This document shows, piece after piece, positions 16,777-31,708 of a DNA stretch of 32,000 nucleotides. The translations under genes and the position numbers were made by a program. The number at the start of each line of letters is the position of its first letter. The first letter of the stretch is position 1. Source of the DNA: Vibrio vulnificus CMCP6 (GTDB lineage Bacteria; Pseudomonadota; Gammaproteobacteria; Enterobacterales; Vibrionaceae); NCBI RefSeq assembly GCF_000039765.1, contig NC_004459.3:2421127-2453126 (forward strand), given 5' to 3'. The notes beneath the pieces were generated by a model. It was not told where the DNA came from. It searched no databases and saw only the letters and a list, made by a program, of their open reading frames with translations.

Positions 16777-17130
16777 ATGCCTCGCGTAAAACGTGGTGTA
16801 CAAGCTCGTGCACGTCATAAGAAAGTTTTAAAACAAGCTAAAGGTTACTACGGTGCACGTTCACGTGTTTACCGCGTAGCTTTCCAAGCAGTTACTAAAG
16901 CTGGTCAATACGCTTACCGTGACCGTCGCGCTAAGAAACGTCAATTCCGTCAACTGTGGATTGCACGTATCAACGCGGCATCTCGTCAAAATGGTCTATC
17001 TTACAGCCGTTTCATCAACGGTCTTAAGAAAGCATCTATCGAGATCGATCGTAAGATCCTTGCGGATATCGCTGTATTCGACAAAGCTGCATTTGCAGTT
17101 CTAGTTGAAAAAGCGAAAGCAGCTCTTTAA
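16777..17130 (+). CDS. rplT: 50S ribosomal protein L20
   Basis: 117 aa, [30 protein letters not shown]... GGAGAG SD upstream. Confidence 0.97.
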
Positions 17131-17150
17131 TTAGAGTTTAGGTTAAGAGA

Positions 17151-17176
17151 AAGGAGAGCTTAGGCTCTCCTTTTTT
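17151..17176. terminator. Terminator shared by convergent rplT and intI
   Basis: AAGGAGAGC-ttag-GCTCTCCTT stem followed by TTTTTT on the + strand. On the minus strand the same stem is followed by TCTCTT. Confidence 0.8.
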
Positions 17177-17187
17177 GTATTCTGAAA

Positions 17188-18150
17188 CTAAAGCTTAGAT
17201 AGAGGGCTTAGGACTCCGCCCGCACCTCTTTCTAATACATGAGTGTATATCTGGGTGGTTTTAACGTCAGAATGGCCTAGCTGTTCTTGTACGGTTCTAA
17301 TATCGGCGCCGGACTCAAGTAAGTGTGTTGCAAAGCTATGTCTCAGCGTGTGGCAACTTATGGACTTGGTAATTCCAGCATCTTTTGCCGCTCTCTTTAC
17401 GGCCCTTTGAAGAGCTTGCTCGTTGATGTGATGTCTTCTGAGTAAATCGGACTCTGGATCTCTTGATAACCTATCGGATGGGAATAAATAGTGCCAGTTG
17501 AAATCCATTTCGGCTCCTTGGTATTTTCTTTGCAGAGAAGACGATAACCAAACGCCGGCGTAACCCGCAGTAATTCTGTCTTTTTGATAATAACGTAGTG
17601 CTAATGCCTCTTGCTCTTTCAAGAGGGGATATAACTCCTTAGCGAGTGTAACAGTGCGGTTTTTCCCTCCCTTGCCTTGCCAAACTCTTAGTGCTCCATA
17701 ATGGTAATCAACATCCTGGATTCTAAGACGAACGCACTCCATAACTCTTAATCCAGAGCCATATAACAGCATAATATGAAGTTTATATCTTGGATCTATA
17801 TGTTGAATAAATGCACGAAGCTCTGGCTTGGTCAACACAACTGGCAATTTTCTATCGAGTAGAGACTTCTGAAACTTAATTTCATTATTAAGCGGTGTTC
17901 TGAAATATTCCCGATAGAGAAATAGAACGGAGTTTAATGCAAGTGCTTGTGTCTTTGCGGCAACTTTTTGTTCAACAGCGAGGTGGGTTAAAAATTCTTC
18001 AACATGTTTCTCATTCAATGTAGACGGATGTGCCATCCTATGGAAATAGATGTACTGTTTAATCCAACTGATGTAAGCCTGAATCGTTTTTGTGGCATAG
18101 TGTCGAGTTCGCATATGATCTTGAACACTTAAAATAAACTGATTTTTCAT
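17188..18150 (-). CDS. intIA: Integron integrase (IntIA/IntI4-like tyrosine recombinase)
   Basis: 320 aa with catalytic contexts LLYGSGLRVMECVRLR, HTLRHSFATHLL and TQIYTHV. It carries the integron-specific insertion (WLSSSLQRKYQGAEMDFNWHYLFPS). It is divergent from an attC-bounded cassette array and sits next to rplT, as in Vibrio superintegrons. Confidence 0.95.
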   Translation of the reverse strand: MKNQFILSVQDHMRTRHYATKTIQAYISWIKQYIYFHRMAHPSTLNEKHVEEFLTHLAVEQKVAAKTQALALNSVLFLYREYFRTPLNNEIKFQKSLLDRKLPVVLTKPELRAFIQHIDPRYKLHIMLLYGSGLRVMECVRLRIQDVDYHYGALRVWQGKGGKNRTVTLAKELYPLLKEQEALALRYYQKDRITAGYAGVWLSSSLQRKYQGAEMDFNWHYLFPSDRLSRDPESDLLRRHHINEQALQRAVKRAAKDAGITKSISCHTLRHSFATHLLESGADIRTVQEQLGHSDVKTTQIYTHVLERGAGGVLSPLSKL

Positions 18151-18171
18151 TCCTAACCTTTGTGTTTTTAT

Positions 18172-18187
18172 ATGTGTATATATACAG
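18172..18187 (-). promoter_or_regulatory. LexA-box-like palindrome upstream of intIA
   Basis: The minus strand reads CTGTATATATACACAT (CTGT-N8-ACAT), against the SOS-box consensus CTGT-N8-ACAG. It lies 22-37 nt upstream of the intIA ATG. Confidence 0.55.
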
Positions 18188-18374
18188 CCTTTTAAAGTTA
18201 GGCTAGTTGTAAAATTAAGCTACATCTAAATGCCTAATTGAGACTATTAGCACGCACTTTCATTCAAAATTGATATTTGTTTCATATGGTTGTGTGATAG
18301 CATTCTTGAAGTCTTTGACATAAAGATTGGCGGTAGCGTGCACGATTAGTACAACATGTTGGTGTATAGAGAGC

Positions 18375-18381
18375 GTTATGT
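18375..18381 (+). other. attI core site (GTTATGT), junction with cassette 1
   Basis: GTTATGTGA at 18375-18383 is the reverse complement of TCACATAAC, which ends the body of cassette 1 at its attC (18705-18713). All 19 other cassettes obey the same rule. The alternative GTTAGCG at 18460 matches only 4 nt. Confidence 0.6.
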
Positions 18382-18467
18382 GACTTCCCAATAGTGACAC
18401 AACTCAGAATACAATAATTAAAATAAGTATATGCTTATATTTTGCAACAAAGACAGGTGGTTAGCGT

Positions 18468-18692
18468 ATGGGAAATGTTATTTCAACACTTTTTAGTTGG
18501 GTCATTATGAGTATGTGGCTTCTATTGCCACTAGGTTGGGTCTATTGGCTTTGGGTTGCAGTAAAAATTGGCGGTTTTGCAATGTTTGCATTGGCGTTGT
18601 TCCCGATTACTTCACCAATAGCAGCTATTTTGGGCGGTTGGTCATTTTTATTCGGACTGCCTGATTGGGTGGTTAGTGTCTTCATATCATAG
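18468..18692 (+). CDS. Small hydrophobic membrane protein (cassette 1)
   Basis: 74 aa, almost entirely TM-like segments rich in W/L/F/G. AGGTGG SD-like sequence 7 nt upstream. Confidence 0.5.
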   Translation: MGNVISTLFSWVIMSMWLLLPLGWVYWLWVAVKIGGFAMFALALFPITSPIAAILGGWSFLFGLPDWVVSVFIS

Positions 18693-18709
18693 TCTCGAAC
18701 AGCATCACA

Positions 18710-18830
18710 TAACAAACGCTTCAAGAGGGACAGCCAACGCGTGGCATTTTTACTATGCGTTGGTTTTTGTGGTTACGGTGTTATGCAGAAAGTTGGTAGT
18801 AGCGTTGGCTGCCCCTTAAGCGGGCGTTAG
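18710..18830 (+). repeat. attC 1 (121 bp)
   Basis: TAACAAACGCTTCAAGAGGG ... GCCCCTTAAGCGGGCGTTAG, giving imperfect R''-L''/L'-R' inverted ends. Confidence 0.9.
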
Positions 18831-19319
18831 TTTGCAAGAGGAAAAACGCAACCATATCGCAAGATCTAGTGTAAAGGCTCAAAGTTGAAATTGTCGTATT
18901 GGCGTTCAATTTCAGTGTTAATTAGCGTGGTAAAAATCCAAAATTGGCATCGTTTCAAGAGTAAATTTGTTCTTTGGTGTTGTGAGTTTTGGGGCCATTG
19001 AGTCGAACTTTTTTGCTTGAAACTCTGCTCTGTGAGTTTGTTGGTGCAAAAGCAGATTTACTCGCTGAAATGACGTTTTCTCTGGTGTGGCAAGTTCACG
19101 TGGTTTCAGTGGCTTTGTTGAAAGTCCGCATTGTGAGATTGGTTTTCCAAAAGCGCTTTTTGGTGTTGTGAGTTCGTTTTCTGCGGCGTTGTTTGTTCCA
19201 CGTGGTTTCATTGAGTAGCCGCTTTGAGACTACGCCTGACTTGAGTGCGTCAAGGTGCGTATGGTTTGTTGTTTGCAAAGTTTAAAATAACGTAAAATCA
19301 ACACTTTGGGTTTGCAAAC
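18831..19319 (+). other. ORF-less cassette, family A copy 1
   Basis: About 490 bp, repeated at 20717-21203 and 28331-28817 with substitutions and 1-nt indels that break every reading frame. Confidence 0.8.
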
Positions 19320-19440
19320 TAACAAACTGTTCAAGAGGGATTCGCAACGCGTGGCATTTTCACTATGCGTTGGTTTTAGTGGTTAAGGTAGCATGCAGCG
19401 GCTTTTGTATTGCGTTGCTCACCCCTTAACAGGGCGTTAG
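19320..19440 (+). repeat. attC 2 (121 bp)
   Basis: TAACAAACTGTTCAAGAGGGATTCGCAACGCGTGGC ... CACCCCTTAACAGGGCGTTAG. Confidence 0.9.
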
Positions 19441-19456
19441 GTTAATCAATGAGGAT

Positions 19457-20110
19457 ATGATGAAAACTGATAAGGTTACGGTCCGGACATTTCAGAATCG
19501 ATACAATACTTACTTAAAACTTTTGCTGGCTCTTCGTAGTGATATGGGTTGGTTTTTTGATGATTCTCATAAAGCAAATATCCTAACAGTCCCATTTATT
19601 CTGACATTGGCAGCAGCACTAGAATGCTCCTTGAATGATCATTTAATTGAGCACTTTGATGATGAGTTTGGTGATAACTCGAAGCAGATGCTTCCGGGGC
19701 TAATGTCAATGAACTTTAAAGGAAAACTCATCAATATAGTGCCAATCTTGACGAAATATAAATTCAAGCTAAATGCCGAGCACAAAGTATATGCACTATT
19801 AGTCGAGTTAATTAAGCTACGTAATAGCCTTGTACATAATAAGAGCGACTATGACTCTCACGAATTCTCGCTACTGAAAGATGATGAAGGGAACGTGCAA
19901 GGGCTACAGTATGATGACTTAGAGTCCTTAATGGGGAAAGAGGTCGATTATACGTTTGGCATAAAAGCAGATGTTGGTGCTATTCATGACGCAGTAGAAA
20001 GGTTCCATGAGTTGTTTTTAGAACATTATCGAGAATCAGACTTCAGTGGTAACGAACTTGTTATTCCGTTAGAAGAGAACAATCGAATCAAAATCGTCGT
20101 AACAGATTAA
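19457..20110 (+). CDS. HEPN-motif protein (candidate RNase toxin / abortive-infection effector), cassette 3
   Basis: 217 aa, predicted all-helical. It contains ELIKLRNSLVHN, matching the HEPN R-x4-H (RNxxxH) signature. GAGGA SD upstream; an alternative ATG lies at 19460. Confidence 0.5.
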   Translation: MMKTDKVTVRTFQNRYNTYLKLLLALRSDMGWFFDDSHKANILTVPFILTLAAALECSLNDHLIEHFDDEFGDNSKQMLPGLMSMNFKGKLINIVPILTKYKFKLNAEHKVYALLVELIKLRNSLVHNKSDYDSHEFSLLKDDEGNVQGLQYDDLESLMGKEVDYTFGIKADVGAIHDAVERFHELFLEHYRESDFSGNELVIPLEENNRIKIVVTD

Positions 20111-20112
20111 CC

Positions 20113-20234
20113 TAACAAGGCGTTCAAGAGGGATTCATGCCGCGTGGCATTTTTGGCATGCGGTCAGTTTTGGTAGTGAAAGTGGCTTGCGGAAGGTTGG
20201 TTTATGCGGCACTCACCCCTTAACGCAGCGTTAT
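20113..20234 (+). repeat. attC 3 (122 bp)
   Basis: TAACAAGGCGTTCAAGAGGGATTCATGCCGCGTGGC ... CACCCCTTAACGCAGCGTTAT. Confidence 0.9.
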
Positions 20235-20362
20235 GCAAATACTCAAATCAGCTGATTTTCCAGTGCTTAGGTCTAGGCTATTGGCGAAAATAAATTGGCT
20301 AACTGCCTACAGCATTCTGGTAAACTGCGACCAAACTAAGCGGTATTATTAGGATCCAAGCG

Positions 20363-20584
20363 ATGAGCCAAGAGCAACCAAACAACCCTTTACATGGATT
20401 AACCTTAGAGAAAATCCTTGTTCGTTTACAAGAGCACTATGGTTGGGAAGGGTTAGACAGAGAAATTCAAATTAACTGTTTTTACAGCAATCCATCAATC
20501 AAATCTTCTCTTAAGTTTTTGTGTCGCACACAGTGGGCGAGAGACAAGGTTGAGGCTTTGTATATAGATACGTTTTGCCGTTAG
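20363..20584 (+). CDS. VF530/DUF2132-like small DNA-binding-fold protein, cassette 4
   Basis: 73 aa. NPLHGLTLEKILVRLQEHYGWEGL...NPSIKSSLKFLCRTQWARDKVEALY resembles the VF530 family as I remember it. Confidence 0.6.
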   Translation: MSQEQPNNPLHGLTLEKILVRLQEHYGWEGLDREIQINCFYSNPSIKSSLKFLCRTQWARDKVEALYIDTFCR

Positions 20585-20594
20585 AACATTTGCA

Positions 20595-20716
20595 TAACAA
20601 GGCGTTCAAGTGGGATTCATGCCGCGTGGCATTTTTGGTATGCAGTGAATTTTGGTGGTGAAAGTGGTTTGCAGAAAGTTGGTTTAGGCGGCATTCACCC
20701 CTTAACGCGGCGTTAG
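20595..20716 (+). repeat. attC 4 (122 bp)
   Basis: TAACAAGGCGTTCAAGTGGGATTCATGCCGCGTGGC ... CACCCCTTAACGCGGCGTTAG. Confidence 0.9.
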
Positions 20717-21203
20717 TTTGCAAGCGGAAAAACGCAGCCATATCTCAATATCTAGTGGTAAAAGCTCAAAGTTGAAGTTGTCGTATCGGCGTTCAATTTC
20801 AGTGTTAATTAGCGTGGTAAAAATCCAAAATTGGCATCGCATCAACGGTTGATTTGTTCTTTGGTGCGGCGACTTTGGGGTTAATTGAGTCGAACTTTTT
20901 TGCTGAAACTCTGCTCGTTGAGTTTGTTGGTACAAAAGCCGATTTATTCGCTGAAATGGCGTTTTCTCTGGTGTGGTAAGTTCACTTGGTTTCAGTGACT
21001 TTGTTGAAAGTCCGCATTATGAGGTTGGTTTTCCAAAAGCGCTTTTTGGTGTTGTGAGTTCGTTTTCTGCGTCGTTGTTTGTTCCACGTGGTTTCATTGA
21101 CTAGCCGCTTTTAGACTACGCCTGACTTAAGTGCGTCAAAGCACATAAAGTTTTGCTCGCAAAGTTTAAAATAACGTAAAATCAACCTTTTGGGTCTGCA
21201 AAC
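20717..21203 (+). other. ORF-less cassette, family A copy 2
   Basis: Co-linear with 18831-19319. The frames of track ORFs on either strand are not conserved between copies. Confidence 0.8.
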
Positions 21204-21324
21204 TAACAAACTGCTCAAGAGGGATTCACAACGCGTGGCATTTTTACTATGCGTTGATTTTAGTGATTAAGGTGGTATGCAGCGGCTTCGGTATTGCGTT
21301 GTTCACCCCTTAGCAGGGCGTTAA
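21204..21324 (+). repeat. attC 5 (121 bp)
   Basis: TAACAAACTGCTCAAGAGGGATTCACAACGCGTGGC ... CACCCCTTAGCAGGGCGTTAA. Confidence 0.9.
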
Positions 21325-21339
21325 ATGCACGAGGAAGTT

Positions 21340-21795
21340 ATGGATAAACCGTTTCAGAGAATAGGCTCAAAATCTAATGCTCATGTAGGTCGTGAGTTCG
21401 AATCTGCAGCATCAAAATTTTTTCTGAGCCAAGGCATAGAACTTGTTCCCAATCTGAAAGTTGAAGTCGGCATTTCAAACTTGAAGAAACAACATGCGTT
21501 CGATCTCGGTTGTATTGATCAAAAGATCATTGTCGAGTGTAAGGCTCATAAATGGACAACAGGTGGTAATGTTCCTAGTGCGAAATTGACTGTTTGGAAT
21601 GAAGCAATGTATTACTTTTATACAGCTCCAGTCGGTTTCAGAAAAATTATGTTTGTCCTTCGTGATTTCAGTACAAAGAGGAACGAGACTTTAGCTCAAT
21701 ATTATGTCCGTACTTATAAGCACTTAATCCCAAATGATGTCGAGCTTTGGGAGTACGATGAGAACACTGAAAGTGCATCGAAACTGTGCATTTAA
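21340..21795 (+). CDS. PD-(D/E)xK-motif protein (candidate restriction-endonuclease-fold nuclease), cassette 6
   Basis: The ordered motif E (GREFESAA) ... D (HAFDLG) ... ExK (IIVECKAHKW) is typical of the PD-(D/E)xK fold. ATG 21340 follows GAGGAA; an in-frame ATG at 21325 abuts the attC. Confidence 0.5.
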   Translation: MDKPFQRIGSKSNAHVGREFESAASKFFLSQGIELVPNLKVEVGISNLKKQHAFDLGCIDQKIIVECKAHKWTTGGNVPSAKLTVWNEAMYYFYTAPVGFRKIMFVLRDFSTKRNETLAQYYVRTYKHLIPNDVELWEYDENTESASKLCI

Positions 21796-21914
21796 CAAAG
21801 CGTTTAAGACGGATTCCCAACGCTTGGCATTTTCGGTTTGCTTTGAATTTAGTGATTACGGCACAATGGTTTAGGTAGGGTGGTAGCGTTGCTCACCACT
21901 TAACGCGGCGTTAT
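21793..21914 (+). repeat. attC 6 (122 bp)
   Basis: TAACAAAGCGTTTAAGACGGATTCCCAACGCTTGGC ... CACCACTTAACGCGGCGTTAT. The stop codon of the upstream ORF is the TAA of the R'' box. Confidence 0.9.
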
Positions 21915-21950
21915 GCGATTCATGAGTGCAGCGATAAGGATAAAAATATT

Positions 21951-22589
21951 ATGTATAAAGTCGGCATTGTTTTGTTTGATGATTTTACAGATGTAGACTT
22001 CTTTCTTATGTATGACTTGCTTGGTCGAACAACTGATAGTTGGACGGTTAGCGTGCTGGGAACTAAATCTGAACACACTTCCCACCTAGGTATGAAAGTC
22101 AAAACGGACGGACCTGTTTCAGAGGTGACGAATCAAGATGTCATTCTCATTACCAGTGGTAAACGTGGTATTCCAGCGGCAATAAACGATACTAAATTTA
22201 TGTCAGCGTTGAATCTTGACCCAAATAAACAGCTAATTGGTTCAATTTGTGCGGGGTCATTCATCCTTCATGAACTCGGTTTACTTAAAGGCAAGCCATT
22301 GACGACAAATCCAGATGCTAAGGCTGTTCTACAAAGCATGGGAGGGGACGTTCAGGACCAACCTCTTGTTGTAGAGGGAAACATAGCTACTGCCGGAGGC
22401 TGTCTTTCACTGATGTATCTAATAGGTTGGTTAGCCGAGCGGCTGTTTGACTCAAATAAACGAAAAAGCATTCAAAATCAGTTGATCCCAGCTGGACAGT
22501 TAGAGCTATTCGAAGAGCTTATTTCTACAACTATCCAATCAGCTGAGTTGGCAAGCTCGCATAACAAAGCGTTTAAGAGTGACTCGTAA
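21951..22589 (+). CDS. DJ-1/PfpI-family (class I glutamine-amidotransferase-like) protein, cassette 7
   Basis: 212 aa with the nucleophile-elbow context LIGSICAGSFIL and an N-terminal KVGIVLFDDFTDVD strand. The last 9 codons read into the attC. Confidence 0.7.
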   Translation: MYKVGIVLFDDFTDVDFFLMYDLLGRTTDSWTVSVLGTKSEHTSHLGMKVKTDGPVSEVTNQDVILITSGKRGIPAAINDTKFMSALNLDPNKQLIGSICAGSFILHELGLLKGKPLTTNPDAKAVLQSMGGDVQDQPLVVEGNIATAGGCLSLMYLIGWLAERLFDSNKRKSIQNQLIPAGQLELFEELISTTIQSAELASSHNKAFKSDS

Positions 22590-22682
22590 CGCGTGGCATT
22601 TATACTGTGCGTTAGTTTTAGTGTTTAAGGCGCAATGCAGAGGCTCCGGCATGGCGTTACTCACACCTTAACGCGGCGTTAT
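22562..22682 (+). repeat. attC 7 (121 bp)
   Basis: TAACAAAGCGTTTAAGAGTGACTCGTAACGCGTGGC ... CACACCTTAACGCGGCGTTAT. Confidence 0.9.
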
Positions 22683-23029
22683 GCTTAATCAATTAAAATC
22701 AGTGGGTTATGGTTTTTCTTTGTTCCCTCAGCTTTTTGGTTTTGTGCTCGTCGGCAAGTTGGCTTAAGTGGGCGCTATTTTCGGACAGTTATTCTTTGGC
22801 GCTGAAAATTCAGAGAATTGCCTCAATCAATTTTTAGGTAAGCGCGAGGTTAGGGTGGCAGGCTCAATCAGCAATTTAATCTTAGGTTTTTGAGTATTAG
22901 CGGCCAAATTTCAATGTCTGATTTTCAAAATCATGAGTCATTTCCGTTTTTAGGTTTTGGCTTTTGTTTGTGAATCAAAGTCGAGTTAATCTTGGTTTTA
23001 TCAAAACGTAAGCCATTGAAGCTTAAGCA
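22683..23029 (+). other. ORF-less cassette, family B copy 1
   Basis: About 350 bp, repeated at 23044-23376, 26451-26798 and 28939-29293. The ATG-initiated frame stops at different points in each copy. Confidence 0.8.
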
Positions 23030-23043
23030 TAACAAAGCGTTTA
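23030..23043 (+). repeat. attC remnant (first 14 nt only, TAACAAAGCGTTTA)
   Basis: An R''/L'' start identical to attC 16, joined directly to nt ~22 of a second family B copy. The rest of the attC is missing. Confidence 0.75.
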
Positions 23044-23376
23044 TCAGTGGTTTATGGTTTTTCTTTGTTCCCTCGGCTTTTCAGTTTTGTGTTTGTCGGC
23101 AAGTTGGTTTCAGTGGGCGCTGTTTTCTGGACACTTATTCTTTGGCGCTGGAAATTCAGAGAATTGCCTCAATCAGTTTTCGCGTAAGCGCGAGGTTAGG
23201 GCAGTTGGCTCAATCAGAAATTTGAACTTGGCTTTTTGAGTTTTAGTCGCCAAATTTCAAAGTCCGATTTTTAAAACTATGAGTCATTTCGGTTTTCTAC
23301 GTTTTGTCTTTTGTTTGTAAATCAAGGTCGAGTTAATCTTGGTTCTATTAAAACGTAACCCATTGAAGCTTAAGCA
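23044..23376 (+). other. ORF-less cassette, family B copy 2 (5'-truncated, fused to copy 1)
   Basis: Begins at TCAGTGGTTTATGG, which is internal in the other copies. Otherwise co-linear with them. Confidence 0.8.
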
Positions 23377-23498
23377 TAACAAGGCGTTCAAGTGGGATTC
23401 ATGCCGCGTGGCATTTTTGGTATGCGGTGGTTTTTGGTGGTGAAAGTGGTTTGCAGAAAGCTGGTTTAAGCGGCATTCACCCCTTAACGCAGCGTTAT
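23377..23498 (+). repeat. attC 8 (122 bp)
   Basis: TAACAAGGCGTTCAAGTGGGATTCATGCCGCGTGGC ... CACCCCTTAACGCAGCGTTAT. Confidence 0.9.
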
Positions 23499-23603
23499 GC
23501 GCTATTCAAATCTTTATTAACTTGGTCGAAAATACTCAAAGTATTCATGATTGTGCTCAGACCAAAAGTTACCATGTTCTTTTTATAAATTGGGGTACGA
23601 TGC

Positions 23604-23861
23604 ATGAGTATAGATCAACAAGAACGATGGGCTAAAAATAGGGAGAAAGGATTTGCTAGATACGTCGCTAGTAACACTATCTCGTTCCTACTGATCGTTT
23701 CCTTAGTTCGTGCAGTGTTTTACTTCGCTACTCAAGACAATGCTTCGATTGAAGGCTTTATCTCCGAGCAGTCCATGACCATAGTTTTTATAGCAATAGT
23801 TCTACCATTTGTATTTTGGTTTACTTGGTTGTACCAAGAGTCAAAATATAAAAAGGATTAG
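23604..23861 (+). CDS. Small two-TM membrane protein, cassette 9
   Basis: 85 aa with two hydrophobic helices (ISFLLIVSLVRAVFYF and IVFIAIVLPFVFWFTWL). The cassette has a 105-nt leader. Confidence 0.45.
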   Translation: MSIDQQERWAKNREKGFARYVASNTISFLLIVSLVRAVFYFATQDNASIEGFISEQSMTIVFIAIVLPFVFWFTWLYQESKYKKD

Positions 23862-23875
23862 TAAAGCTGCGCGCA

Positions 23876-23997
23876 TAACAAAGCGTTTAAGAGGGATTTG
23901 GCACGCGTGGCATTTTCAGTTTGCGTTGAGTTCGGTGGTTACGGCACTGTGCGGTAGCTTTTGTATTGCGTGCCTGCACCCCTTAACGCGGCGTTAT
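23876..23997 (+). repeat. attC 9 (122 bp)
   Basis: TAACAAAGCGTTTAAGAGGGATTTGGCACGCGTGGC ... TGCACCCCTTAACGCGGCGTTAT. Confidence 0.9.
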
Positions 23998-24022
23998 GTT
24001 ACTGCACTTTACGAGTAATTGA

Positions 24023-24310
24023 ATGAATAAAAAGTTGTTAGTTGGCGGTTGTTTACTCGGTGTAACCGCTCTATTTTTTGTCGGTAAACGAGGTGGTGAG
24101 GAGTTATCGCTCCCCATGTGTGATTCCGTCCCTAAAATTGATACGCCAGTGCATTTTTTCACAGATGACTCCATTAGTGAGGCACGAATTGAAGAGTTTA
24201 TTGACTATTCAAACCTTGTTCTAGAGAACTCTTGCATTCCAATTAGAAGGACCCTTTCAGGAATCACCAAACTTGATTTGACCAGTTTTAAAAAGTCAAG
24301 ACAGTGGTAA
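24023..24310 (+). CDS. N-terminal fragment (signal/anchor region) of a split metalloprotease, cassette 10
   Basis: 95 aa beginning MNKKLLVGGCLLGVTALFFVG (signal peptide or lipobox-like). It ends near an A/T homopolymer tract (24286-24295: TTTT then AAAAA). Confidence 0.4.
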   Translation: MNKKLLVGGCLLGVTALFFVGKRGGEELSLPMCDSVPKIDTPVHFFTDDSISEARIEEFIDYSNLVLENSCIPIRRTLSGITKLDLTSFKKSRQW

Positions 24311-24359
24311 GTTACATCAACAGTTACTCCTAAATGTTGGTAGCTCGGTTCTTGAGCCA

Positions 24360-24776
24360 ATGCAAAAAGTTGGAAGTTATTATGTTCTAGTTCTTCCTAA
24401 AGACTTTCCTTTTGCAAAAGACAGTGCAGGAACTGCTCATGTAAATTTTAGTCGCAGTTTTTTGGTTCTATCTTCTGATGCAGAACTTCATGTACTTGAG
24501 CATGAGTTGGGGCATCTGGCTTGGGCATGGCACGACAACACAGCAATACATTGGTTAAAAGGGCAGCTTCTAAAAGAGCATCACAAGCAAATTAAGCCAT
24601 ATGCATTTGGGGCATTGTGTCATGAAGCGGGGACGGTAATGACTTATGCAGAGAAGCAGTTGCCAGCCTATTCATCACCGGATATCAAATATTATGGACA
24701 GGCTTGTGGCAATGCCGAAACTGCTGATAATGCACGTCATATGCGAGAGTTTGCGCTATCACTAGTAGCTCCGTAA
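24360..24776 (+). CDS. HExxH zinc-metalloprotease domain fragment, cassette 10
   Basis: 138 aa with HVLEHELGHLAWAWHD (HExxH plus a downstream H/D). This frame is open back to 24282, so it overlaps the end of the upstream fragment. Confidence 0.5.
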   Translation: MQKVGSYYVLVLPKDFPFAKDSAGTAHVNFSRSFLVLSSDAELHVLEHELGHLAWAWHDNTAIHWLKGQLLKEHHKQIKPYAFGALCHEAGTVMTYAEKQLPAYSSPDIKYYGQACGNAETADNARHMREFALSLVAP

Positions 24777-24778
24777 CA

Positions 24779-24900
24779 TAACAAGGCGTTCAAGCGGGAT
24801 TCATGCCGCGTGGCATTTTTGGTATACGGTGAGTTTGGGTGATGAAAGTGGTCTGCGGGAAGTTGGTTTATGCGGCATTCACCCCTTAACGCAGCGTTAT
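24779..24900 (+). repeat. attC 10 (122 bp)
   Basis: TAACAAGGCGTTCAAGCGGGATTCATGCCGCGTGGC ... CACCCCTTAACGCAGCGTTAT. Confidence 0.9.
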
Positions 24901-24930
24901 GCGTCCTTAAAACTTGAGTAAGGTGTACAA

Positions 24931-25356
24931 GTGGAAAGTAGAGTTGTTAAAGCTTCAAAATTCTTAGGTTTGGGCATTGTGTTGTACCCGATCGCCTATT
25001 CGTCACTTAACTTTGTTCTACCCATTCTGATTGGCGTGCTAGGTAATGAAAATCACTTCCTGGTTACAGGTTTAGAGATCATCACCTGGTTTGTGCTCCC
25101 AATTTTTTCAGTGTTCTATTTACTAGCATTTCACCAATTAGCTGGGGCGCTTAGAAAATGGCAAAAATTCGTAGGGTATATGATGGTATCAACGGCAGTT
25201 ATTGCTGAAGTATTGTTACCCTTTATCGACAGAGGTTTAGTGAGTAGATCTATTTCGTTTTTGGCTCATATGGCTGAGCTTGTCATTTTGTCCGGTTGCT
25301 TGTTGGCAATTGGTAGTCAAATGAAGCAAAGTGTCGATGTTAGCTGCAACGCATAA
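24931..25356 (+). CDS. Four-TM membrane protein, cassette 11 (GTG start)
   Basis: 141 aa with four hydrophobic segments. The only start in frame is GTG 24931, preceded by AAGG. The stop lies in the TAAC of the attC. Confidence 0.45.
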   Translation: MESRVVKASKFLGLGIVLYPIAYSSLNFVLPILIGVLGNENHFLVTGLEIITWFVLPIFSVFYLLAFHQLAGALRKWQKFVGYMMVSTAVIAEVLLPFIDRGLVSRSISFLAHMAELVILSGCLLAIGSQMKQSVDVSCNA

Positions 25357-25475
25357 CAAAGCGTTTAAGAGGGACTTGGCACGCGTGGCATTTTTAATTT
25401 GCGGTAAGTTTAGTGATTAAGGTGTAATGCGGTCACTTTTGTATTGCGTGCCTGCGCCCCTTAACGCGGCGTTAG
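25354..25475 (+). repeat. attC 11 (122 bp)
   Basis: TAACAAAGCGTTTAAGAGGGACTTGGCACGCGTGGC ... TGCGCCCCTTAACGCGGCGTTAG. Confidence 0.9.
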
Positions 25476-25498
25476 AAGAATAAGGAACAATTCCAATT

Positions 25499-26323
25499 AT
25501 GAGTAATGAAAGTAGTAACGAGAGCAATATTGAAGGAACTATCAATGCCGTAACTGGATTAGCTAAAGCTATTCCAGTTTATGAAGACGCATTACAACCT
25601 GCTGCGAAGGAAATAGGAAAGGCCTTAGGCACAGTAGCAAAAACTGTCAATGTAGCATTGGCTCCTGTCTCTGCGTTAGTTTGGGGTTATGACAAAATTA
25701 AAGATTTTGTTGATACAAAAGTGTCCGAGAAGTTATCTAATGTAAAAGATGAAGACATCGTTTCTCCTCCGCCAAATGTAGCAGGCCCTGCGCTCGAATC
25801 ACTCAAGTACACAGGTAGCATAGAAGAATTGAAAGAGCTTTATGCTAACTTGATCGCTTCAAGTATGGATAAAAATACAACTCATAAAGCTCATCCATCT
25901 TTTGTAGAAATAATTAAGCAGTTGTCATCAGACGAGGCTAAATTGCTTGTTTACTTTGCTTCATCAGGTTCTGCTCCTATTGTAGACATAAAAAATAATC
26001 GTAAAGACAAATCGGGTGGTAGATATGAGTATAGGTATTTCACCAATATTGGTGAGAAACTTAAATTGGAGAATTTGGGATTAAACTCTTCGTATTGGAG
26101 TAATTTAATTCGTTTAGGGCTTGTTGATATCCCAGATAATTTTCAACTCATTGAAGAAGGTATCTACGACGATATTATTTCTCATACGGCGGTCAAAAGT
26201 ATAGTTAGTAATATCAACAAACAAGAGGGTAGAGTTGCCGAAATAATAAAAACGGCTGTTCTTGTAACCGATTTGGGTCGTCAATTTATTGATGTTTGTG
26301 TAGTAGATCATCGAACACAATAA
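25499..26323 (+). CDS. Abi-alpha / DUF4393-like protein (candidate abortive-infection protein), cassette 12
   Basis: 274 aa. The N-terminal helix LQPAAKEIGKALGTVAKTV, central ELYANLIASSM and IIKQLSSDEAKLL match my recollection of the Abi-alpha family signature. No search was run. Confidence 0.5.
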   Translation: MSNESSNESNIEGTINAVTGLAKAIPVYEDALQPAAKEIGKALGTVAKTVNVALAPVSALVWGYDKIKDFVDTKVSEKLSNVKDEDIVSPPPNVAGPALESLKYTGSIEELKELYANLIASSMDKNTTHKAHPSFVEIIKQLSSDEAKLLVYFASSGSAPIVDIKNNRKDKSGGRYEYRYFTNIGEKLKLENLGLNSSYWSNLIRLGLVDIPDNFQLIEEGIYDDIISHTAVKSIVSNINKQEGRVAEIIKTAVLVTDLGRQFIDVCVVDHRTQ

Positions 26324-26329
26324 TTCTTC

Positions 26330-26450
26330 TAACAAACTGTTCAAGAGTGATTCGCAACGCGTAGCATTTTTACTATGCGTTGCGTTTGGTGATTAAGGTG
26401 GTATGCGGCGGCATCGGTATTGCGTTGCTCACACCTTAACAGGGCGTTAT
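26330..26450 (+). repeat. attC 12 (121 bp)
   Basis: TAACAAACTGTTCAAGAGTGATTCGCAACGCGTAGC ... CACACCTTAACAGGGCGTTAT. Confidence 0.9.
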
Positions 26451-26798
26451 GCTTAATCACGTAAAATCAGTGGTTTATGGTTTTTCTTTGTTCCCTTGGC
26501 TGATTGGTTTTGTGCTTGTCGGCAAGTCGGTTTCATTGGGCGCTGCTTTTCGGACATTTATTCTTTGGCGCTGAAAATTCAGAGAGTTGCCTCAATCAAT
26601 TTTCAGGTAAGCGCGAGGTTAGGGTAGCTGGCTCAATCAGCAATTTGATCTTAGGTTTTGAGTTTTAGCAGCCGAATTTCAAAGCCCGATTTTCAAAACT
26701 ATGAGTCCTTTCGGTTTTCTACGTTTTGGCTTTTGTTTGTAAATCAAAGTCGAGTTAATCTTGGTTCTAGTAAAACGTAAGCCGTTGAAGCTTAAGCA
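26451..26798 (+). other. ORF-less cassette, family B copy 3
   Basis: Co-linear with 22683-23029 and 28939-29293. Confidence 0.8.
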
Positions 26799-26920
26799 TA
26801 ACAAGGCGTTCAAGAGGGATTCATGCCGCGTGGCATTTTTGGTATGCGGTGAGTTTTGGTGGTGAAAGTGGTCTGCGGAAGGTAGGTTTGAGCGGCATTC
26901 ACCCCTTAACGCAGCGTTAT
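26799..26920 (+). repeat. attC 13 (122 bp)
   Basis: TAACAAGGCGTTCAAGAGGGATTCATGCCGCGTGGC ... CACCCCTTAACGCAGCGTTAT. Confidence 0.9.
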
Positions 26921-26936
26921 ATTTTTCGAGGATCCA

Positions 26937-28241
26937 ATGAGATTATCAATTGAACATCAAGCGACAAGGGTATGTGAAAGTAGTGAATACCTTTTCGGTC
27001 GTGAAGCTTTTGCAAAGAGCTTATTGAATATTTTTTCTAATTCAGAAAGTGGTTTTGTTCTAGCGATTGATGCTACTTGGGGAGCAGGTAAAACAGCTTT
27101 TATTCATCAGTTAATCCACGATCTAAAAGCAACAGAAAAAATTATTCCGATTTACTATGATGCATTTTCCAACGATTTTTCTAATGATACGTTTTTATCT
27201 ATTGGTGCGACTATATTCCATGAAGTCGAAGGCTATTTTGAGTCAACAGGTAAAAGCGTAAAGGTTAAAAAGCAGTTAGAACATCTCAAAGACTTAACAA
27301 AAAAAACCGCAGGAGAGCTGATAAAGTTATCGAGCAATTTAGCCCTTAAATCTTTGACTGCTGGAATGATTGATAACTCAGAATTAGAGAAAATAGCTAT
27401 AAAAACCTTTAATTCGGCGACTTTCGGTACACTAGAACTAGAGTTAAATGAGAAATTCAAAGCATACGAAAATGCTAAATCAAACATCCAATCGTATGTA
27501 GATGCTTTAGAATCAGTTAGCCAAAATGGTGAAAAAGTCATATTTTTCATTGATGAGTTAGATCGATGTCGCCCAGACTTTGCTGTTGAAGTTCTTGAAA
27601 AGGTAAAGCACTTATTTGCTGCTAAGAATGTGATTTTTGTTATTTCTTACAACAAGTCTCAATTGTCAAAGATAATATCTCACGTTTACGGTGTTGAAAA
27701 TAAAGATGCATTGAAGTATCTAGAGAAGTTTATTCATATAGAGGCTAATTTACCAGTTGTTGATGAGAAGTCATCAACAAGCTCTTATGAACAGTTGTTT
27801 GATAGTTTTGTTCGGGAGTTTAATATTGAATTACCAAATCAACAGCAAAGAATTACGTCGCTAAAGAATATGTTTACTTTACTGTGTCAGCCAAAGCACT
27901 TAAATATGAATAGTCGCGAGATCGAAAGGGCGTTTAGTTACGTTAGTTTCTGCTTTGCAGCTCTTCCTAAAGAAAAAGGGTCTTCGCTTTTTGAGTTCTT
28001 TCTACCGGCTGCAATGATGAAAGTAAAAAATAGTGAAATCTTCAATCAGGTATCGGAAGGGCGGTTTTTCTCGACAAGCGCAAACTATAAATGGCTTCAT
28101 GATTTCTTTAAAGAGCACTACAAAAGTTCATTGACTCCCCAAGCGTCGAACGTATTTTATGTAAAGCAGTTTGAAGAAGCGTGTGGCATAGTCTCAATGT
28201 TTAAAATGCCTACTGATGACATCATTGAAGACAAAATATAA
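26937..28241 (+). CDS. KAP-family P-loop NTPase, cassette 14
   Basis: 434 aa with Walker A AIDATWGAGKTAF and the KAP-typical Walker B context VIFFIDELDRCRPDFAVEVLEKVKHLF, then VIFVISYN and YLEKFIHIEANLP. I see no TM insertion between Walker A and B. Confidence 0.75.
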   Translation: MRLSIEHQATRVCESSEYLFGREAFAKSLLNIFSNSESGFVLAIDATWGAGKTAFIHQLIHDLKATEKIIPIYYDAFSNDFSNDTFLSIGATIFHEVEGYFESTGKSVKVKKQLEHLKDLTKKTAGELIKLSSNLALKSLTAGMIDNSELEKIAIKTFNSATFGTLELELNEKFKAYENAKSNIQSYVDALESVSQNGEKVIFFIDELDRCRPDFAVEVLEKVKHLFAAKNVIFVISYNKSQLSKIISHVYGVENKDALKYLEKFIHIEANLPVVDEKSSTSSYEQLFDSFVREFNIELPNQQQRITSLKNMFTLLCQPKHLNMNSREIERAFSYVSFCFAALPKEKGSSLFEFFLPAAMMKVKNSEIFNQVSEGRFFSTSANYKWLHDFFKEHYKSSLTPQASNVFYVKQFEEACGIVSMFKMPTDDIIEDKI

Positions 28242-28330
28242 CAAAGCATTTAAGAGTGATTCGCAACGCTTGGCAGTTTCGCTTCGCTCAAGTATAGCCA
28301 AGCGTCGCTCACACCTTAATGCGGCGTTAG
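28239..28330 (+). repeat. attC 14, short class (92 bp)
   Basis: TAACAAAGCATTTAAGAGTGATTCGCAACGCTTGGC-agtttcgcttcgctcaagtata-GCCAAGCGTCGCTCACACCTTAATGCGGCGTTAG. The ends match the other attCs, but the central region is about 30 bp shorter. Confidence 0.85.
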
Positions 28331-28817
28331 TTTGCAAGAGGAAAAATGCAGCTATATCGCAAGATCTAGTGTAAAGGCTCAAAGTTGAAATTGTCGTATT
28401 GGCGTTCAATTTCAGTGTTAATTAGCGTGGTAAAAATCCAAAATTGGCATCGTTTCAAGGGTAAATTTGTTCTTTGGTGTTGTGAGTTTGGGGTCATTGA
28501 GTCGAACTTTTTTGCTGAAACTCTGCTCTGTGAGTTTGTTGGTACAAAAGCCGATTTACTTGCTGAAAGGATGCTTTCTCAGGTGTGGCAAGTTCACGTG
28601 GTTTCAGTGACTTTGTTGAAAGTCCGCATTGTGAGATTGGTTTTCTAAAAGCGCTTTTTGGTGTTGTGAGTTCGTTTTCTGCGGCGTTGTTTGTTCCACG
28701 TGGTTTCATTGACTAGCCGCTTTGAGACGAAGCCTGACTTAGGTGCATCAAAGCACATAAAGTTTATTGTTCGCAAAGTTTAAAACAACGTAAAATCAAC
28801 CTTTTGGGTCTGCAAAC
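28331..28817 (+). other. ORF-less cassette, family A copy 3
   Basis: Co-linear with 18831-19319 and 20717-21203. Confidence 0.8.
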
Positions 28818-28938
28818 TAACAAACTGCTCAAGAGGGATTCACAACGCGTGGCATTTTTACTATGCGTTGATTTTAGTGATTAAGGTGGTATGCGGCGGC
28901 TTTGGTATTGCGTTGCTCACCCCTTAGCAGGGCGTTAT
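28818..28938 (+). repeat. attC 15 (121 bp)
   Basis: TAACAAACTGCTCAAGAGGGATTCACAACGCGTGGC ... CACCCCTTAGCAGGGCGTTAT. Confidence 0.9.
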
Positions 28939-29293
28939 GCTTAATCACCTAAAATCAGTGGTTTATGGTTTTTCTTTGTTCCCTCGGCTTGTTAGTTTCG
29001 AGTTTGTCGGCAAGTTGGCTTTTTTGAACGCTGCTTTTCGGACACTTATTCTGTGGCGCTGGAAATTCAGAGAATTGCCTCATTCAATTCTCGGGCAAGC
29101 GCGAGGTTGGGGCGGTGGCTCAATCAGAAATCCATTTCTAGGCTTTCAAACTTCAAACTAGATTTGCCAAAATTCCTAACCTGAATATCAAAACTATGAT
29201 TCATTTCAGTTTTCTAAGTTTTGGCTTTTGTTTCTGAATCAAAGTCGAGTTAATCTTGTTCCCAGAAAAACGTAACCCATTGAAGCTTAAGCA
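28939..29293 (+). other. ORF-less cassette, family B copy 4
   Basis: Co-linear with the other B copies but more diverged in its central third. Confidence 0.75.
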
Positions 29294-29415
29294 TAACAAA
29301 GCGTTTAAGTGGGATTTGGCACGCGTGGCATTTTCGGTTTGCGTTGGGTTCGGTGATTAAGTCGCTGTGCGGTAGCTTTTGTATTGCGTGCCTGCACCCC
29401 TTAACGCGGCGTTAG
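29294..29415 (+). repeat. attC 16 (122 bp)
   Basis: TAACAAAGCGTTTAAGTGGGATTTGGCACGCGTGGC ... TGCACCCCTTAACGCGGCGTTAG. Confidence 0.9.
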
Positions 29416-29427
29416 CCGTCATGGAGC

Positions 29428-29462
29428 TTGCTATACTCAAAGTGATAGAATAGTATCACTTT
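29428..29462 (+). promoter_or_regulatory. Cassette-internal sigma70-like promoter with overlapping operator palindrome (TA module)
   Basis: TTGCTA (29428-29433), 17-nt spacer, TAGTAT (29451-29456). The inverted repeat AAAGTGATA (29439-29447) / TATCACTTT (29454-29462) spans the -10 element. Confidence 0.65.
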
Positions 29463-29485
29463 AGTATTTCTTTGGAGCAGCTCTC

Positions 29486-29743
29486 ATGAAAGTAGAACTA
29501 GTTACATCACTCAAACGCCAAGCAACAAAGATCCTTGCCGATCTCCACGACACTAAAGAACCAGTGTTAATTACCGAACATGGTAAGCCATCGGCATATC
29601 TGGTTGATGTTGATGATTACGAGTTTATGCAAAATCGTTTAGCGATTCTTGAGGGGATTGCACGAGGTGAACGTGCATTAGCTGACGGTAAAGTGGTGAG
29701 TCACGATGAAGCCAAGGACAAAATGTCAAAATGGCTGAAATAA
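29486..29743 (+). CDS. Phd/YefM-family antitoxin, cassette 17
   Basis: 85 aa. MKVELVTSLKRQATKILADLHDTKEPVLITEHGKPSAYLVDVDDYE is a typical YefM/Phd N-terminal fold sequence. GGAG SD; overlaps the toxin gene by 13 nt. Confidence 0.85.
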   Translation: MKVELVTSLKRQATKILADLHDTKEPVLITEHGKPSAYLVDVDDYEFMQNRLAILEGIARGERALADGKVVSHDEAKDKMSKWLK

Positions 29744-30033
29744 TCTGGACTGAGCCAGCGCTATCCGACCTCAATGATATCGCTGAATACATCGCACTTG
29801 AAAATATCGTAGCTGCAAAACAATTGGTTCAAGCGATCTTTTCTAAAGTCGAGCGCTTAGAGGCTTTCCCTGAATCGGGTCGCATTCCGCCTGAACTAGA
29901 ACATCTAAGTTATCGTGAAGTTGTAGTTAATCCGTGCCGTATTTTCTATAAACAAGACGGCGACAAAGTATTTATTTTGTTTGTTATGCGTGCTGAGAGA
30001 GACTTGCGTAAGTTCCTATTGAGCAAGCAATAA
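29731..30033 (+). CDS. ParE/RelE-superfamily toxin, cassette 17
   Basis: 100 aa. IIWTEPALSDLNDIAEYIA...FPESGRIPPEL...YREVVVNPCRIFYK...VFILFVMRAERD is typical of ParE-type plasmid-stabilisation toxins. Confidence 0.8.
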   Translation: MAEIIWTEPALSDLNDIAEYIALENIVAAKQLVQAIFSKVERLEAFPESGRIPPELEHLSYREVVVNPCRIFYKQDGDKVFILFVMRAERDLRKFLLSKQ

Positions 30034-30051
30034 CCTTTGGGAATGAACGGC

Positions 30052-30174
30052 TAACAAACTGTTTAAGAGTGATTCGCAACGCGTGGCATTTTTACTATGC
30101 GTTAGGTTTAGTGTTTAAGGTGTGACATGCGGTGGCTTCGGTATTGCGTTGCTCACACCTTAACAGGGCGTTAG
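30052..30174 (+). repeat. attC 17 (123 bp)
   Basis: TAACAAACTGTTTAAGAGTGATTCGCAACGCGTGGC ... CACACCTTAACAGGGCGTTAG. Confidence 0.9.
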
Positions 30175-30601
30175 GCAAAAGGCAGAAAAGTTCTTTGTTC
30201 TAATTTTTTGTTCCCTCTGGCAGTTCGCTTTTCTTAGTCGGCAATCCCGTATTGTCGGCTCTAATTCTTAAATCTCTTCAACCGTAAAACATGCCAAAGT
30301 TCGTGGGTTGCCTCATTGGGTTTCAGTGTTGGTTGGTGTTGAGCTTCACTGGCTCAAAGTGTGGAAAGGGCAAGTTAGTCGAAGCTTTCATTATTGCTGT
30401 CATTTCGCAGCTTTGAATTTCTCAGGTTCAAAAGCTGCTTTGTCGCGGATAAGTCGCATTTCGTGGTTGTTATAAGTGAGGCTGTAACATAGTGACTTCA
30501 GTAGTTCTTGAATCACAAAAAGTCAGTGGGAGATTGGTTGCTTATCGTGTTTAAGGTATTCTGCTTTCAAAGCAAGTTAGTGAGTAAATTAGAAATTTGC
30601 C
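30175..30601 (+). other. ORF-less cassette 18 (distant relative of family B)
   Basis: No ORF of 60 aa or more on either strand. The 5' part shares TTTGTTCCCTC...GTCGGCAA blocks with family B. An internal hairpin lies at 30407-30438. Confidence 0.6.
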
Positions 30602-30693
30602 TAACAAAGCATTTAAGAGTGATTCGCAACGCTTGGCAGTTTCGCTTCGCTCAAGTATAGCCAAGCGCCGCTCACACCTTAATGCGGCGTTAT
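30602..30693 (+). repeat. attC 18, short class (92 bp)
   Basis: Differs from attC 14 at only 2 of 92 positions by eye (GCGTCGC vs GCGCCGC, and the terminal base). Confidence 0.85.
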
Positions 30694-30728
30694 ATTAATC
30701 AAAAAATTCGAGCACAAAAGGAGTTTCT

Positions 30729-31100
30729 ATGAACTATGATGTTATCGCTTTGGCATGTGAACAATTAGATTATCGCGATAAGTTACGCCTTGCACAGTTG
30801 TTAATTCAGACCGCTCGAAAGGAAGAAGAAACAGTTAACCCTCAAGAGCGAATAATAGAATCAAAACCTTCTATTCCTGAAGCTATTGTAGAGGAGAAAG
30901 AAATTGACACTATTTCCTACGTATATGAACGTTTGCTTAAATTAAGACCAGCGAAAGCAAAATCGCTAACGAACTCCATTAAAGCAATGTTTCAGTTTCA
31001 AGGTGGTATTTCTGAAGCAGAAGTTTCCGATATTGTCAGTGAACTCCAACATAGAAAGTTAGTTAAGCTGACTAACAATAAAGTCGATTACAAAGATTAA
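30729..31100 (+). CDS. Hypothetical protein, cassette 19
   Basis: 123-aa ORF with an AAGGAG SD 6 nt upstream. Helical and charged; no motif recognised. Confidence 0.5.
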   Translation: MNYDVIALACEQLDYRDKLRLAQLLIQTARKEEETVNPQERIIESKPSIPEAIVEEKEIDTISYVYERLLKLRPAKAKSLTNSIKAMFQFQGGISEAEVSDIVSELQHRKLVKLTNNKVDYKD

Positions 31101-31102
31101 TA

Positions 31103-31226
31103 TAACAAGCAATTTAAGAGGGATTCACAACGCTTGGCATTTTTGCTTCTACTTCAATTTTAGTGTTTATGGCACAATGATTTAGGTTTGGGTGGAGGCG
31201 TTGTTCACCCCTTAATTGGGCGTTAT
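31103..31226 (+). repeat. attC 19 (124 bp)
   Basis: TAACAAGCAATTTAAGAGGGATTCACAACGCTTGGC ... CACCCCTTAATTGGGCGTTAT. Confidence 0.85.
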
Positions 31227-31241
31227 GTTTTAAGGATAAAA

Positions 31242-31577: not shown

Positions 31578-31586
31578 TTACAAACA

Positions 31587-31708
31587 TAACAAAGCGTTTA
31601 AGAGGGATTTGGCACGCGTGGCATTTTCGGTTTGCGTTGGGTTCAGTGATTAAGTCGCTGTGCGGTAGCTATTGTAGTGCGTGCCTGCACCCCTTAACGC
31701 GGCGTTAG
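31587..31708 (+). repeat. attC 20 (122 bp)
   Basis: TAACAAAGCGTTTAAGAGGGATTTGGCACGCGTGGC ... TGCACCCCTTAACGCGGCGTTAG. Confidence 0.9.

Follow-up and report, generated by a model that had tools for sequence, protein, structure and literature searches.

Family A, a recurrent non-coding cassette of the Vibrio vulnificus chromosomal integron

Non-coding cassettes were reported to make up 6–49% of Vibrio integron arrays by Boucher et al. (2006; PMC1382264), who found them to be restricted to vibrios and paralogous, with full-length identities of more than 80% from one species to another, and who proposed that they are either selfish elements or carriers of promoter or RNA functions. In a later reporter study of 30 gene-less Vibrio cassettes, most were active on the sense strand, namely 8 of 10 from V. 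cholerae, 3 of 4 from V. parahaemolyticus, 11 of 13 from V. vulnificus and 3 of 3 from V. fischeri (Blanco et al., 2024; PMC11014356). Two further systems lie outside the vibrios. ORF-less cassettes of Treponema, recovered from an oral metagenome, were promoter-active (Tansirichaiya et al., 2019; PMC6557892), and sRNA-Xcc1 of Xanthomonas campestris is described, in a paper that cites the original work (PMC8876359), as a trans-acting sRNA encoded by an integron cassette. At stake for integron biology is whether non-coding cassettes ride along as selfish passengers or regulate how the array is expressed. Here we describe one such family, called family A, and how it compares with these systems.

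The integron and its family A cassettes

The 32,000-nt stretch of DNA analysed (the window) is the chromosomal integron, or superintegron, of V. vulnificus. Its platform is defined by the integron integrase gene intI on the minus strand (17188–18150; Pfam Phage_integrase 2.4e-42, Phage_int_SAM_4 2.8e-28). The attI end (GGTGGTTAGCG, ~18459–18465) was read from the sequence, and from 18709 onward an attC HMM found 20 sites in the window, which are VCR-type, approximately 120 nt long and all located on the plus strand (20/20). Two short attC sites of approximately 91 nt (28238–28329 and 30602–30692), 99% identical to each other, stand out in an array that is otherwise of the ~120-nt type. A LexA-box-like CTGT-N8-ACAG is situated between intI and attI (~18174–18189), as is likewise the case at a Grimontia indica locus (L036, 1969–1984); judged by its motif, the site would fit an integrase under SOS control. 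A VF530 DNA-binding protein (Pfam 7.5e-33) and two cassettes of two genes each, toxin-antitoxin candidates by appearance, are among the coding cassettes of the array (20363–20584, 23997–24777 and 29415–30051). Another non-coding cassette family, with one instance being a fused double, is found at 22679–23386, 26447–26808 and 28935–29303 and is 80–87% identical to the active V1 cassette of Blanco et al. (2024; PMC11014356).

The family A body occurs three times on the plus strand: as the second cassette of the array (copy 1, 18831–19319, 489 bp), as the fifth (copy 2, 20717–21203, 487 bp, followed by the attC at 21204–21323) and at 28331–28817 (copy 3, 487 bp, followed by the attC at 28818–28937). 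An earlier note on this DNA, made from the letters alone, had placed three copies here and judged them by eye to be about nine-tenths identical. The alignment agrees, at 90–93%, with copy 3 being 93.0% and copy 2 being 89.6% identical to copy 1. The single-nucleotide indels and the premature stop of copy 2 quoted in that note were likewise borne out by the alignment and ORF check, and one more 1-nt indel and one 2-nt indel were found between the copies. The sense strand is GT-rich (copy 1: T 35.6, G 25.6, A 23.3 and C 15.5%).

With its attC, the whole cassette measures 608–610 bp, copy 1 extending from 18827 to 19436 (610 bp). The 5′ cassette end of copy 1 (18826–18837, plus strand) comprises the R′ core site GTTAGTT, with crossover after G18826, and a 5-bp extension TGCAA, and is a 12-nt perfect complement of 19312–19323. 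The attC of copy 1 was matched by the HMM at 19317–19439 on the plus strand, with R″ (AACTAAC) at 19317–19323 and the G of R′ at 19436. Family A is bounded by attC sites with R′ GTTAGTT and R″ AACTAAC in an array that begins beside intI, and the outermost ~12 nt of each body end are the extended R′/R″ arms of its own attC. These ends covary between subfamilies (GTTAGTTTGCAA, GTTAGTTGCCAA, GTTAGTCGC, GTTATACGC), and the attC hairpin has a consensus fold of −30.2 (top strand) and −27.0 kcal/mol (bottom strand) over 33 copies. Extended end-to-end pairing was rejected as a speciality of family A, with pairing of 9–12 nt also seen in unrelated Vibrio cassettes.

Two minor features of the copies were also recorded. 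In copy 1, six clustered changes at 19248–19263, mostly A to G (GTCAAGGTGCGTATGG vs the family's ATCAAAGCACATAAAG), abolish the ATG of a 54-codon minus-strand frame and form a sigma-54-like TGG-N9-TTGCA by chance. T-tracts show a periodicity of ~11.25 bp in all three copies, slightly above the 95th percentile of shuffles, and this phasing was dropped as a feature given so marginal an excess.

Further loci were collected with an exact 20-mer in one genome per species, which gave 37 loci in a sample biased to conserved copies. These yielded 38 distinct full-length family A copies of 486–492 nt, 86–93% identical, in keeping with the full-length retention asserted for the window. Hosts include V. 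rotiferianus, V. pacinii, V. mimicus, V. tubiashii, V. diabolicus, V. proteolyticus, V. hepatarius, V. jasicida, V. harveyi, further Vibrio and Grimontia indica. The position within the array varies: family A is the second and fifth cassette in the window, the third in V. mimicus and the fifth in V. tubiashii, and in G. indica, with an IntI only 51% identical to that of the window, it comes first at attI. Copies proximal to attI are those of G. indica (L036, 2170–2662), L005 (468–957) and L010 (4117–4606), or 3 of the ~16 evaluable copies, a count which is only suggestive of enrichment near attI, that is, of recently inserted copies; these positions fit recent integrase-mediated insertion. The recurrence of one cassette at differing positions, in differing arrays and hosts and at attI itself indicates, on sequence comparison, that it moves as a unit. 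Family A or its relatives were also found in the arrays of nine Vibrio PLSDB records that are entered as plasmids and range in size from 37 kb to 2 Mb, and none was found in the phages searched.

Sequence comparison further revealed a core (19115–19246, plus strand) common to related non-coding subfamilies of ~350, ~485 and ~500 nt. These share the core and part of the 3′ tail at 72–89% identity, nearly gap-free and always in the sense orientation (102 of 102 core matches), and in all subfamilies sharing the core GTGGTTTCA is placed 115–118 nt upstream of attC. This superfamily accounts for 56 of the 275 cassettes in the sampled loci. Clustering of its members within arrays was considered and rejected (9 adjacent pairs observed vs 8.8 expected), and an occurrence of the core motif in one coding cassette (L008) was attributed to chance.

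Family A is bounded by attC sites, has a single orientation, is distributed as a mobile unit and, as set out below, has no conserved protein or RNA fold. Excision and re-insertion by the integrase through attC are established integron biology. For family A, the integrase would excise the cassette as a circle via the attC bottom-strand hairpin and re-insert it at attI, and such mobility would account for several copies per array, a single orientation and a range of many species and a second genus. Our preferred reading, held with even confidence, is that family A is a gene-less mobile cassette of Vibrionaceae chromosomal integrons, whose only parts with demonstrable function would be attC and the two cassette ends (the extended R″/R′ stem).

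Coding potential and RNA structure

The earlier note had called the cassette ORF-less, with no frame preserved on either strand. Taken literally the first statement fails, as copy 1 contains a 97-codon ORF (MKPRGTNN...) on the minus strand (18918–19211), yet the cassette is effectively non-coding and this ORF was judged spurious. From the same ATG the frame is 97 aa long in copy 1; a stop cuts it to 26 aa in copy 2, and a frameshift leaves it 71 aa long in copy 3. Copy 2 has ORFs of 76 and 77 codons and copy 3 has ORFs of 87 and 71 codons, and a 43-codon plus-strand ORF (19087–19218) is open in all three copies. The 97-aa translation from copy 1 has an identical counterpart in NCBI, a V. vulnificus hypothetical protein (P0001). 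When used as a query the 97-aa sequence retrieved 558 protein clusters from Vibrio or uncharacterised metagenome sources, 'hypothetical' throughout and mostly 97, 119, 131 or 71 aa in length.

A small minus-strand protein gene, encoding either the 97/119-aa MKPRGT... product or a 54-aa product and present in many copies as a pseudogene, would make sense of several observations. Many of the 558 clusters are of exactly 97 or 119 aa, the ATG and the N-terminal 37 residues are conserved, and a basic 54-codon minus-strand ORF (MCFDALKSG...RRRKR...) overlapping the main one is open in approximately two thirds of copies, with a dN/dS of 0.42. A 128-aa homologue of cassette P3 was moreover reported by Blanco et al. 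(2024; PMC11014356). The substitution pattern, however, speaks against such a gene. When steps were counted by parsimony on a tree of all 38 copies (733 steps), codons 1–37, the best-conserved part of the minus-strand ORF, gave 39, 43 and 30 steps at codon positions 1, 2 and 3, the third being the least variable, and the same region over the diverged subfamilies gave 78, 86 and 77 (p = 0.8), so that a third-position excess is absent. NG86 dN/dS was 0.85 for the minus-strand ATG frame and reached 1.23 in the 43-codon ORF of the plus strand; these ratios are noisy on so skewed a composition, an arbitrary control frame also giving 0.42 and arbitrary frames spanning 0.4–1.2, a range within which the 54-aa frame falls.

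The length and register of the ORF are no better preserved. From the conserved ATG it runs for 13 to 127 codons among copies, and in 4 of the 38 a stop interrupts codons 1–37. Alignment of the homologous proteins shows stretches in an alternative frame that return to register, and the 119-aa form stays in the other frame. In the sister subfamilies the main ORF has CTG in place of its ATG, and the 54-codon frame is lost to a 1-nt indel that fuses the two frames. Period-3 signals are local to some 50-nt windows and shift phase between them without matching any single open frame, and the 54-aa ORF, the 43-codon plus-strand ORF and a period-3 signal at 18961–19112 were rejected as genes on account of inconsistency between adjacent windows. 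For the 97-codon ORF no Shine-Dalgarno sequence was found, nor any match in Pfam, NCBIfam or PADLOC. Composition by itself makes the minus strand poor in stops: since the sense strand is rich in T and G, its complement is A/C-rich, stops are rare on it and chance ORFs are long.

No in-frame, length-conserved ORF with a concentration of synonymous changes was therefore found in any frame of either strand, and none emerged when the alignment was enlarged to the 38 copies and the diverged subfamilies, which upholds the statement that no frame is preserved. The 97-aa minus-strand gene was rejected on codon-phase counts, dN/dS, variable length and alternative frames together, and we regard a protein gene of either form as very unlikely. 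Several hundred 'hypothetical proteins' of 71–131 aa from Vibrio integrons are probably artefacts of the stop-poor A/C-rich strand; one family A locus (L038, NZ_CP133902.1, 19331–19819) is without a gene over the cassette in a RefSeq-derived table. P3 was read by Blanco et al. (2024; PMC11014356) as a degenerated or decayed 128-aa gene. Contrary to that reading, the substitution analysis argues that the P3 'gene' is itself spurious, and the view of P3 as a decayed gene may need revisiting.

The earlier note had put forward a structured RNA as one of two candidate roles, and covariation was accordingly sought with RNAalifold on the 38 copies and the subfamilies. It proved negligible on either strand. 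Over the 38 copies the plus strand folded at −54.05 kcal/mol, of which covariation contributed −1.45, and 3 of 118 predicted pairs had a compensatory change; the minus strand folded at −29.52 kcal/mol, −0.53 of it from covariation, and 0 of 48 pairs had such a change; the power of this analysis is limited within the family (~10% divergence) and better across subfamilies (20–28%). There, a 215-nt core in 33 sequences (72–93% identity) gave consensus energies of only −4.07 (plus) and 0.0 kcal/mol (minus). Windows of 120 nt along the body ranged from −3.5 to −16.8 (plus) and from 0 to −8.6 kcal/mol (minus), far below the attC control at −30.2/−27.0 kcal/mol.

The 8-bp inverted repeat that had been singled out (TGAAATTG/CAATTTCA, 18886–18914, plus strand) is present, as is its A-to-G change in copy 2. 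It shows no compensatory change in 38 copies, pairs no better than shuffled partners and has two basal pairs broken in 16 and 12 of 37 copies. Several of its one-sided changes are G-U compatible on the plus strand, and the minus strand has an MFE z-score of −2.2; these are the two points in favour of a structured non-coding RNA. They are outweighed by the plus-strand z-score of −1.0, by the lack of any Rfam 15 match at E≤1 over 17000–32000, and by the failure to find a fold with compensatory support on the plus or the minus strand, whether family A alone or the wider set of subfamilies was aligned. The structured-RNA reading is close to refuted, and we give it hardly any weight.

Internal repeats and sequence constraint

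Duplicated blocks (TTTGGTGTTGTGAGTT and CACGTGGTTTCA) within each copy, which the earlier note had listed, are indeed present, and they lie in a larger repetition. Two plus-strand units were defined, U1 (19013–19112) and U2 (19113–19214), whose local alignment scored z = 16.9 against shuffles. With the core HMM, U1 appears as a second match in every member of at least ~480 nt (E 1e-8 to 1e-13), and a weaker echo was found at 18915–19012. Members of the ~350-nt subfamily have one unit and longer members two. The duplicated blocks and the TGTGAG repeats are by-products of this old ~100-nt tandem duplication. TRF made no tandem-repeat call on family A because the units are only ~60% alike. U1 and U2 were also tried as degenerate attC sites and rejected (z≤2.7; no nhmmer match even at E = 100).

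The hexamer TGTGAG was correctly placed at 18981, 19031, 19132 and 19167 in copy 1, but the claim of four strict TGTGAG(T/A)TT motifs per copy does not hold, there being three in copy 1, three in copy 3 and none in copy 2 (a window total of 6 vs 0.7 expected by chance). An array of protein-binding sites, the other role suggested for these repeats, found no backing. TGTGAG is kept at the four sites in only 2, 5, 29 and 28 of 38 copies, its positions rank with the core's most variable ones, and its instances are not conserved among members. In copies 1 and 3, 18974–18989 and 28474–28489 read TTGGTGTTGTGAGTTT, from which 36 of 38 members differ, the commonest sequence being TTGGTGCGGCGACTTT. The TTGGTGTTGTGAGTTT variant equals the U2 block at 19161–19176, which suggests conversion between internal repeat units, and the first TGTGAG of copies 1 and 3 seems to have been gained by conversion from U2.

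Substitution rates were obtained as parsimony counts on NJ trees of 33 cassettes, with recombination among paralogues ignored, and came to 1.33 steps per site for the body, 0.90 for U2 and 1.91 for 18918–19012, compared with 1.61 for the attC variable region and 0.44 for the attC stems of the same cassettes. In its rate of change the body thus lags only slightly behind the least constrained part of attC. The slowest-evolving part of the body is U2, which ends in GTTCCA[C/A]GTGGTTTCA[T/G]TGA (19195–19214). For the preferred reading of a gene-less passenger, the slow rate of U2 relative to the rest of the body is an awkward point, as are the gap-free core at 72–80% identity across subfamilies that are otherwise unalignable, and the few and short indels of family A. 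The slow U2 and the gap-free core hint at some sequence-level constraint.

One way to account for this is to take the U2 core as a sequence-specific but unstructured element, acting by base-pairing (as a regulatory RNA or sponge) or by docking a host or integron protein on DNA or RNA; a direction-dependent Rho insulator and a recombination accessory site are examples. The core is kept in at least four subfamilies at 115–118 nt from attC and in one orientation, the 20-nt block at 19195–19214 is nearly invariant except for two hot positions, site rates are overdispersed (index of dispersion 2.6), and the antisense strand is C-rich, G-poor and unstructured. Nevertheless, the clustering of conserved sites is not significant (best 20-nt window 19195–19214, P = 0.052), and common descent without indels would be enough to explain the constant distance to attC. 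Comparison of the conserved blocks with the intI/attI region and the rest of the window gave chance matches only, so that no complementary target was found within the window, and bicyclomycin was without effect in published reporter assays. Block-wise conservation was rejected as proof of selection, as within family A the sole significant window is the 20-mer search pattern used for sampling and nothing significant is left once it is excluded. We consider such an element unlikely.

A bolder form of this idea, which we rate as somewhat less probable still, is that a ~130–200-nt U2 core is an unstructured sequence-specific cis element that tunes the integron itself in at least four subfamilies. 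If so, the U2 core may let untranslated sense transcripts escape Rho and antisense ones be terminated, or it may alternatively dock a host factor that helps attC to fold and recombine. On this view non-coding cassettes would form a functional 'punctuation' of superintegrons and not be passengers.

Transcription and comparison with described cassettes

The nearest tested relatives of family A are two cassettes of V. parahaemolyticus VPD14. P3, of the ~500-nt sister subfamily, is 87% identical to family A positions 180–454 (over 278 nt), and P2, of the ~350-nt one, is 76% identical to positions 286–471 (over 186 nt). Both have the U2 core, orientation and attC type in common with family A. In reporter assays P2 had sense promoter activity and P3 was inactive on either strand (PMC11014356).

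A dedicated promoter or regulatory cassette, kept by selection for a sense-strand (or regulated) promoter that drives downstream cassettes, is a possibility raised by these assays. Most of the 30 gene-less cassettes tested were sense-active, P2 of the sister subfamily and the window's other non-coding family among them, and an 8–28-fold range was reported for P1, P2 and P4. In the window, sense-oriented coding cassettes follow copies 1 and 2, and two TAAAAT hexamers occur at 19283–19298 in the 3′ tail specific to family A. On the other hand, copy 3 is followed by another non-coding cassette. No sigma-70-like site in family A passed a consensus scan, nothing convincing was seen by eye, and a consensus promoter was dropped after both. 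In silico calling of such promoters is impossible according to the authors of the reporter study themselves (PMC11014356). Since P3, the closest tested relative, is inactive on both strands, an effect on transcription is unproven for family A. We hold the promoter reading to be tentative and on balance improbable, although it heads the alternatives, being followed in likelihood by the unstructured U2 element, the small protein and lastly the structured RNA.

Under the preferred reading of a gene-less mobile cassette, family A would persist mainly through being cheap and mobile. Its 490-bp body encodes no conserved protein and no folded RNA, stems from an old ~100-nt tandem duplication and changes nearly as fast as the least constrained stretch of the attC that accompanies it. 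If family A affects the host at all, it would probably do so in cis, through the array transcript, in which it would be a GU-rich spacer that is not translated and that may have weak internal promoter activity like that measured for some sister cassettes. Family A offers a defined test case for the role of non-coding cassettes. It is abundant across species and adjacent to attI in several arrays, and its anatomy of attC arms, duplicated units and core has been mapped; the opposite reporter results of the sister cassettes P2 and P3 provide a natural contrast for experiments.

Among the systems outside the vibrios, sRNA-Xcc1, as far as the citing paper describes it, resembles family A in being a cassette without a protein gene and with a possible RNA product; family A differs in having no Rfam match, no promoter-plus-terminator signature and no conserved structure. 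The Treponema cassettes are likewise attC-bounded and gene-free, and were proposed to modulate the expression of neighbouring cassettes (PMC6557892). Their sequence and host are unrelated to family A, and promoter activity was demonstrated for them and not for family A. With regard to the cassettes of Blanco et al., family A does not fall under their definition of gene-less (no annotated gene and no ORF >210 bp), and it is absent from their test set because its ORFs exceed the 70-aa filter.

The closest likeness is to the class of Boucher et al. (2006; PMC1382264). Non-coding was defined there as having no ORF >150 bp, whereas family A has chance ORFs of up to 97–131 codons and for that reason tends to be annotated as a gene. 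Like that class, family A is repeated within arrays and lacks a synonymous-site pattern, and, matched by described features and not cassette by cassette, it fits every point of the description. Family A is real but, as one of the conserved non-coding cassettes that have been on record in Vibrio since 2006, largely ordinary.
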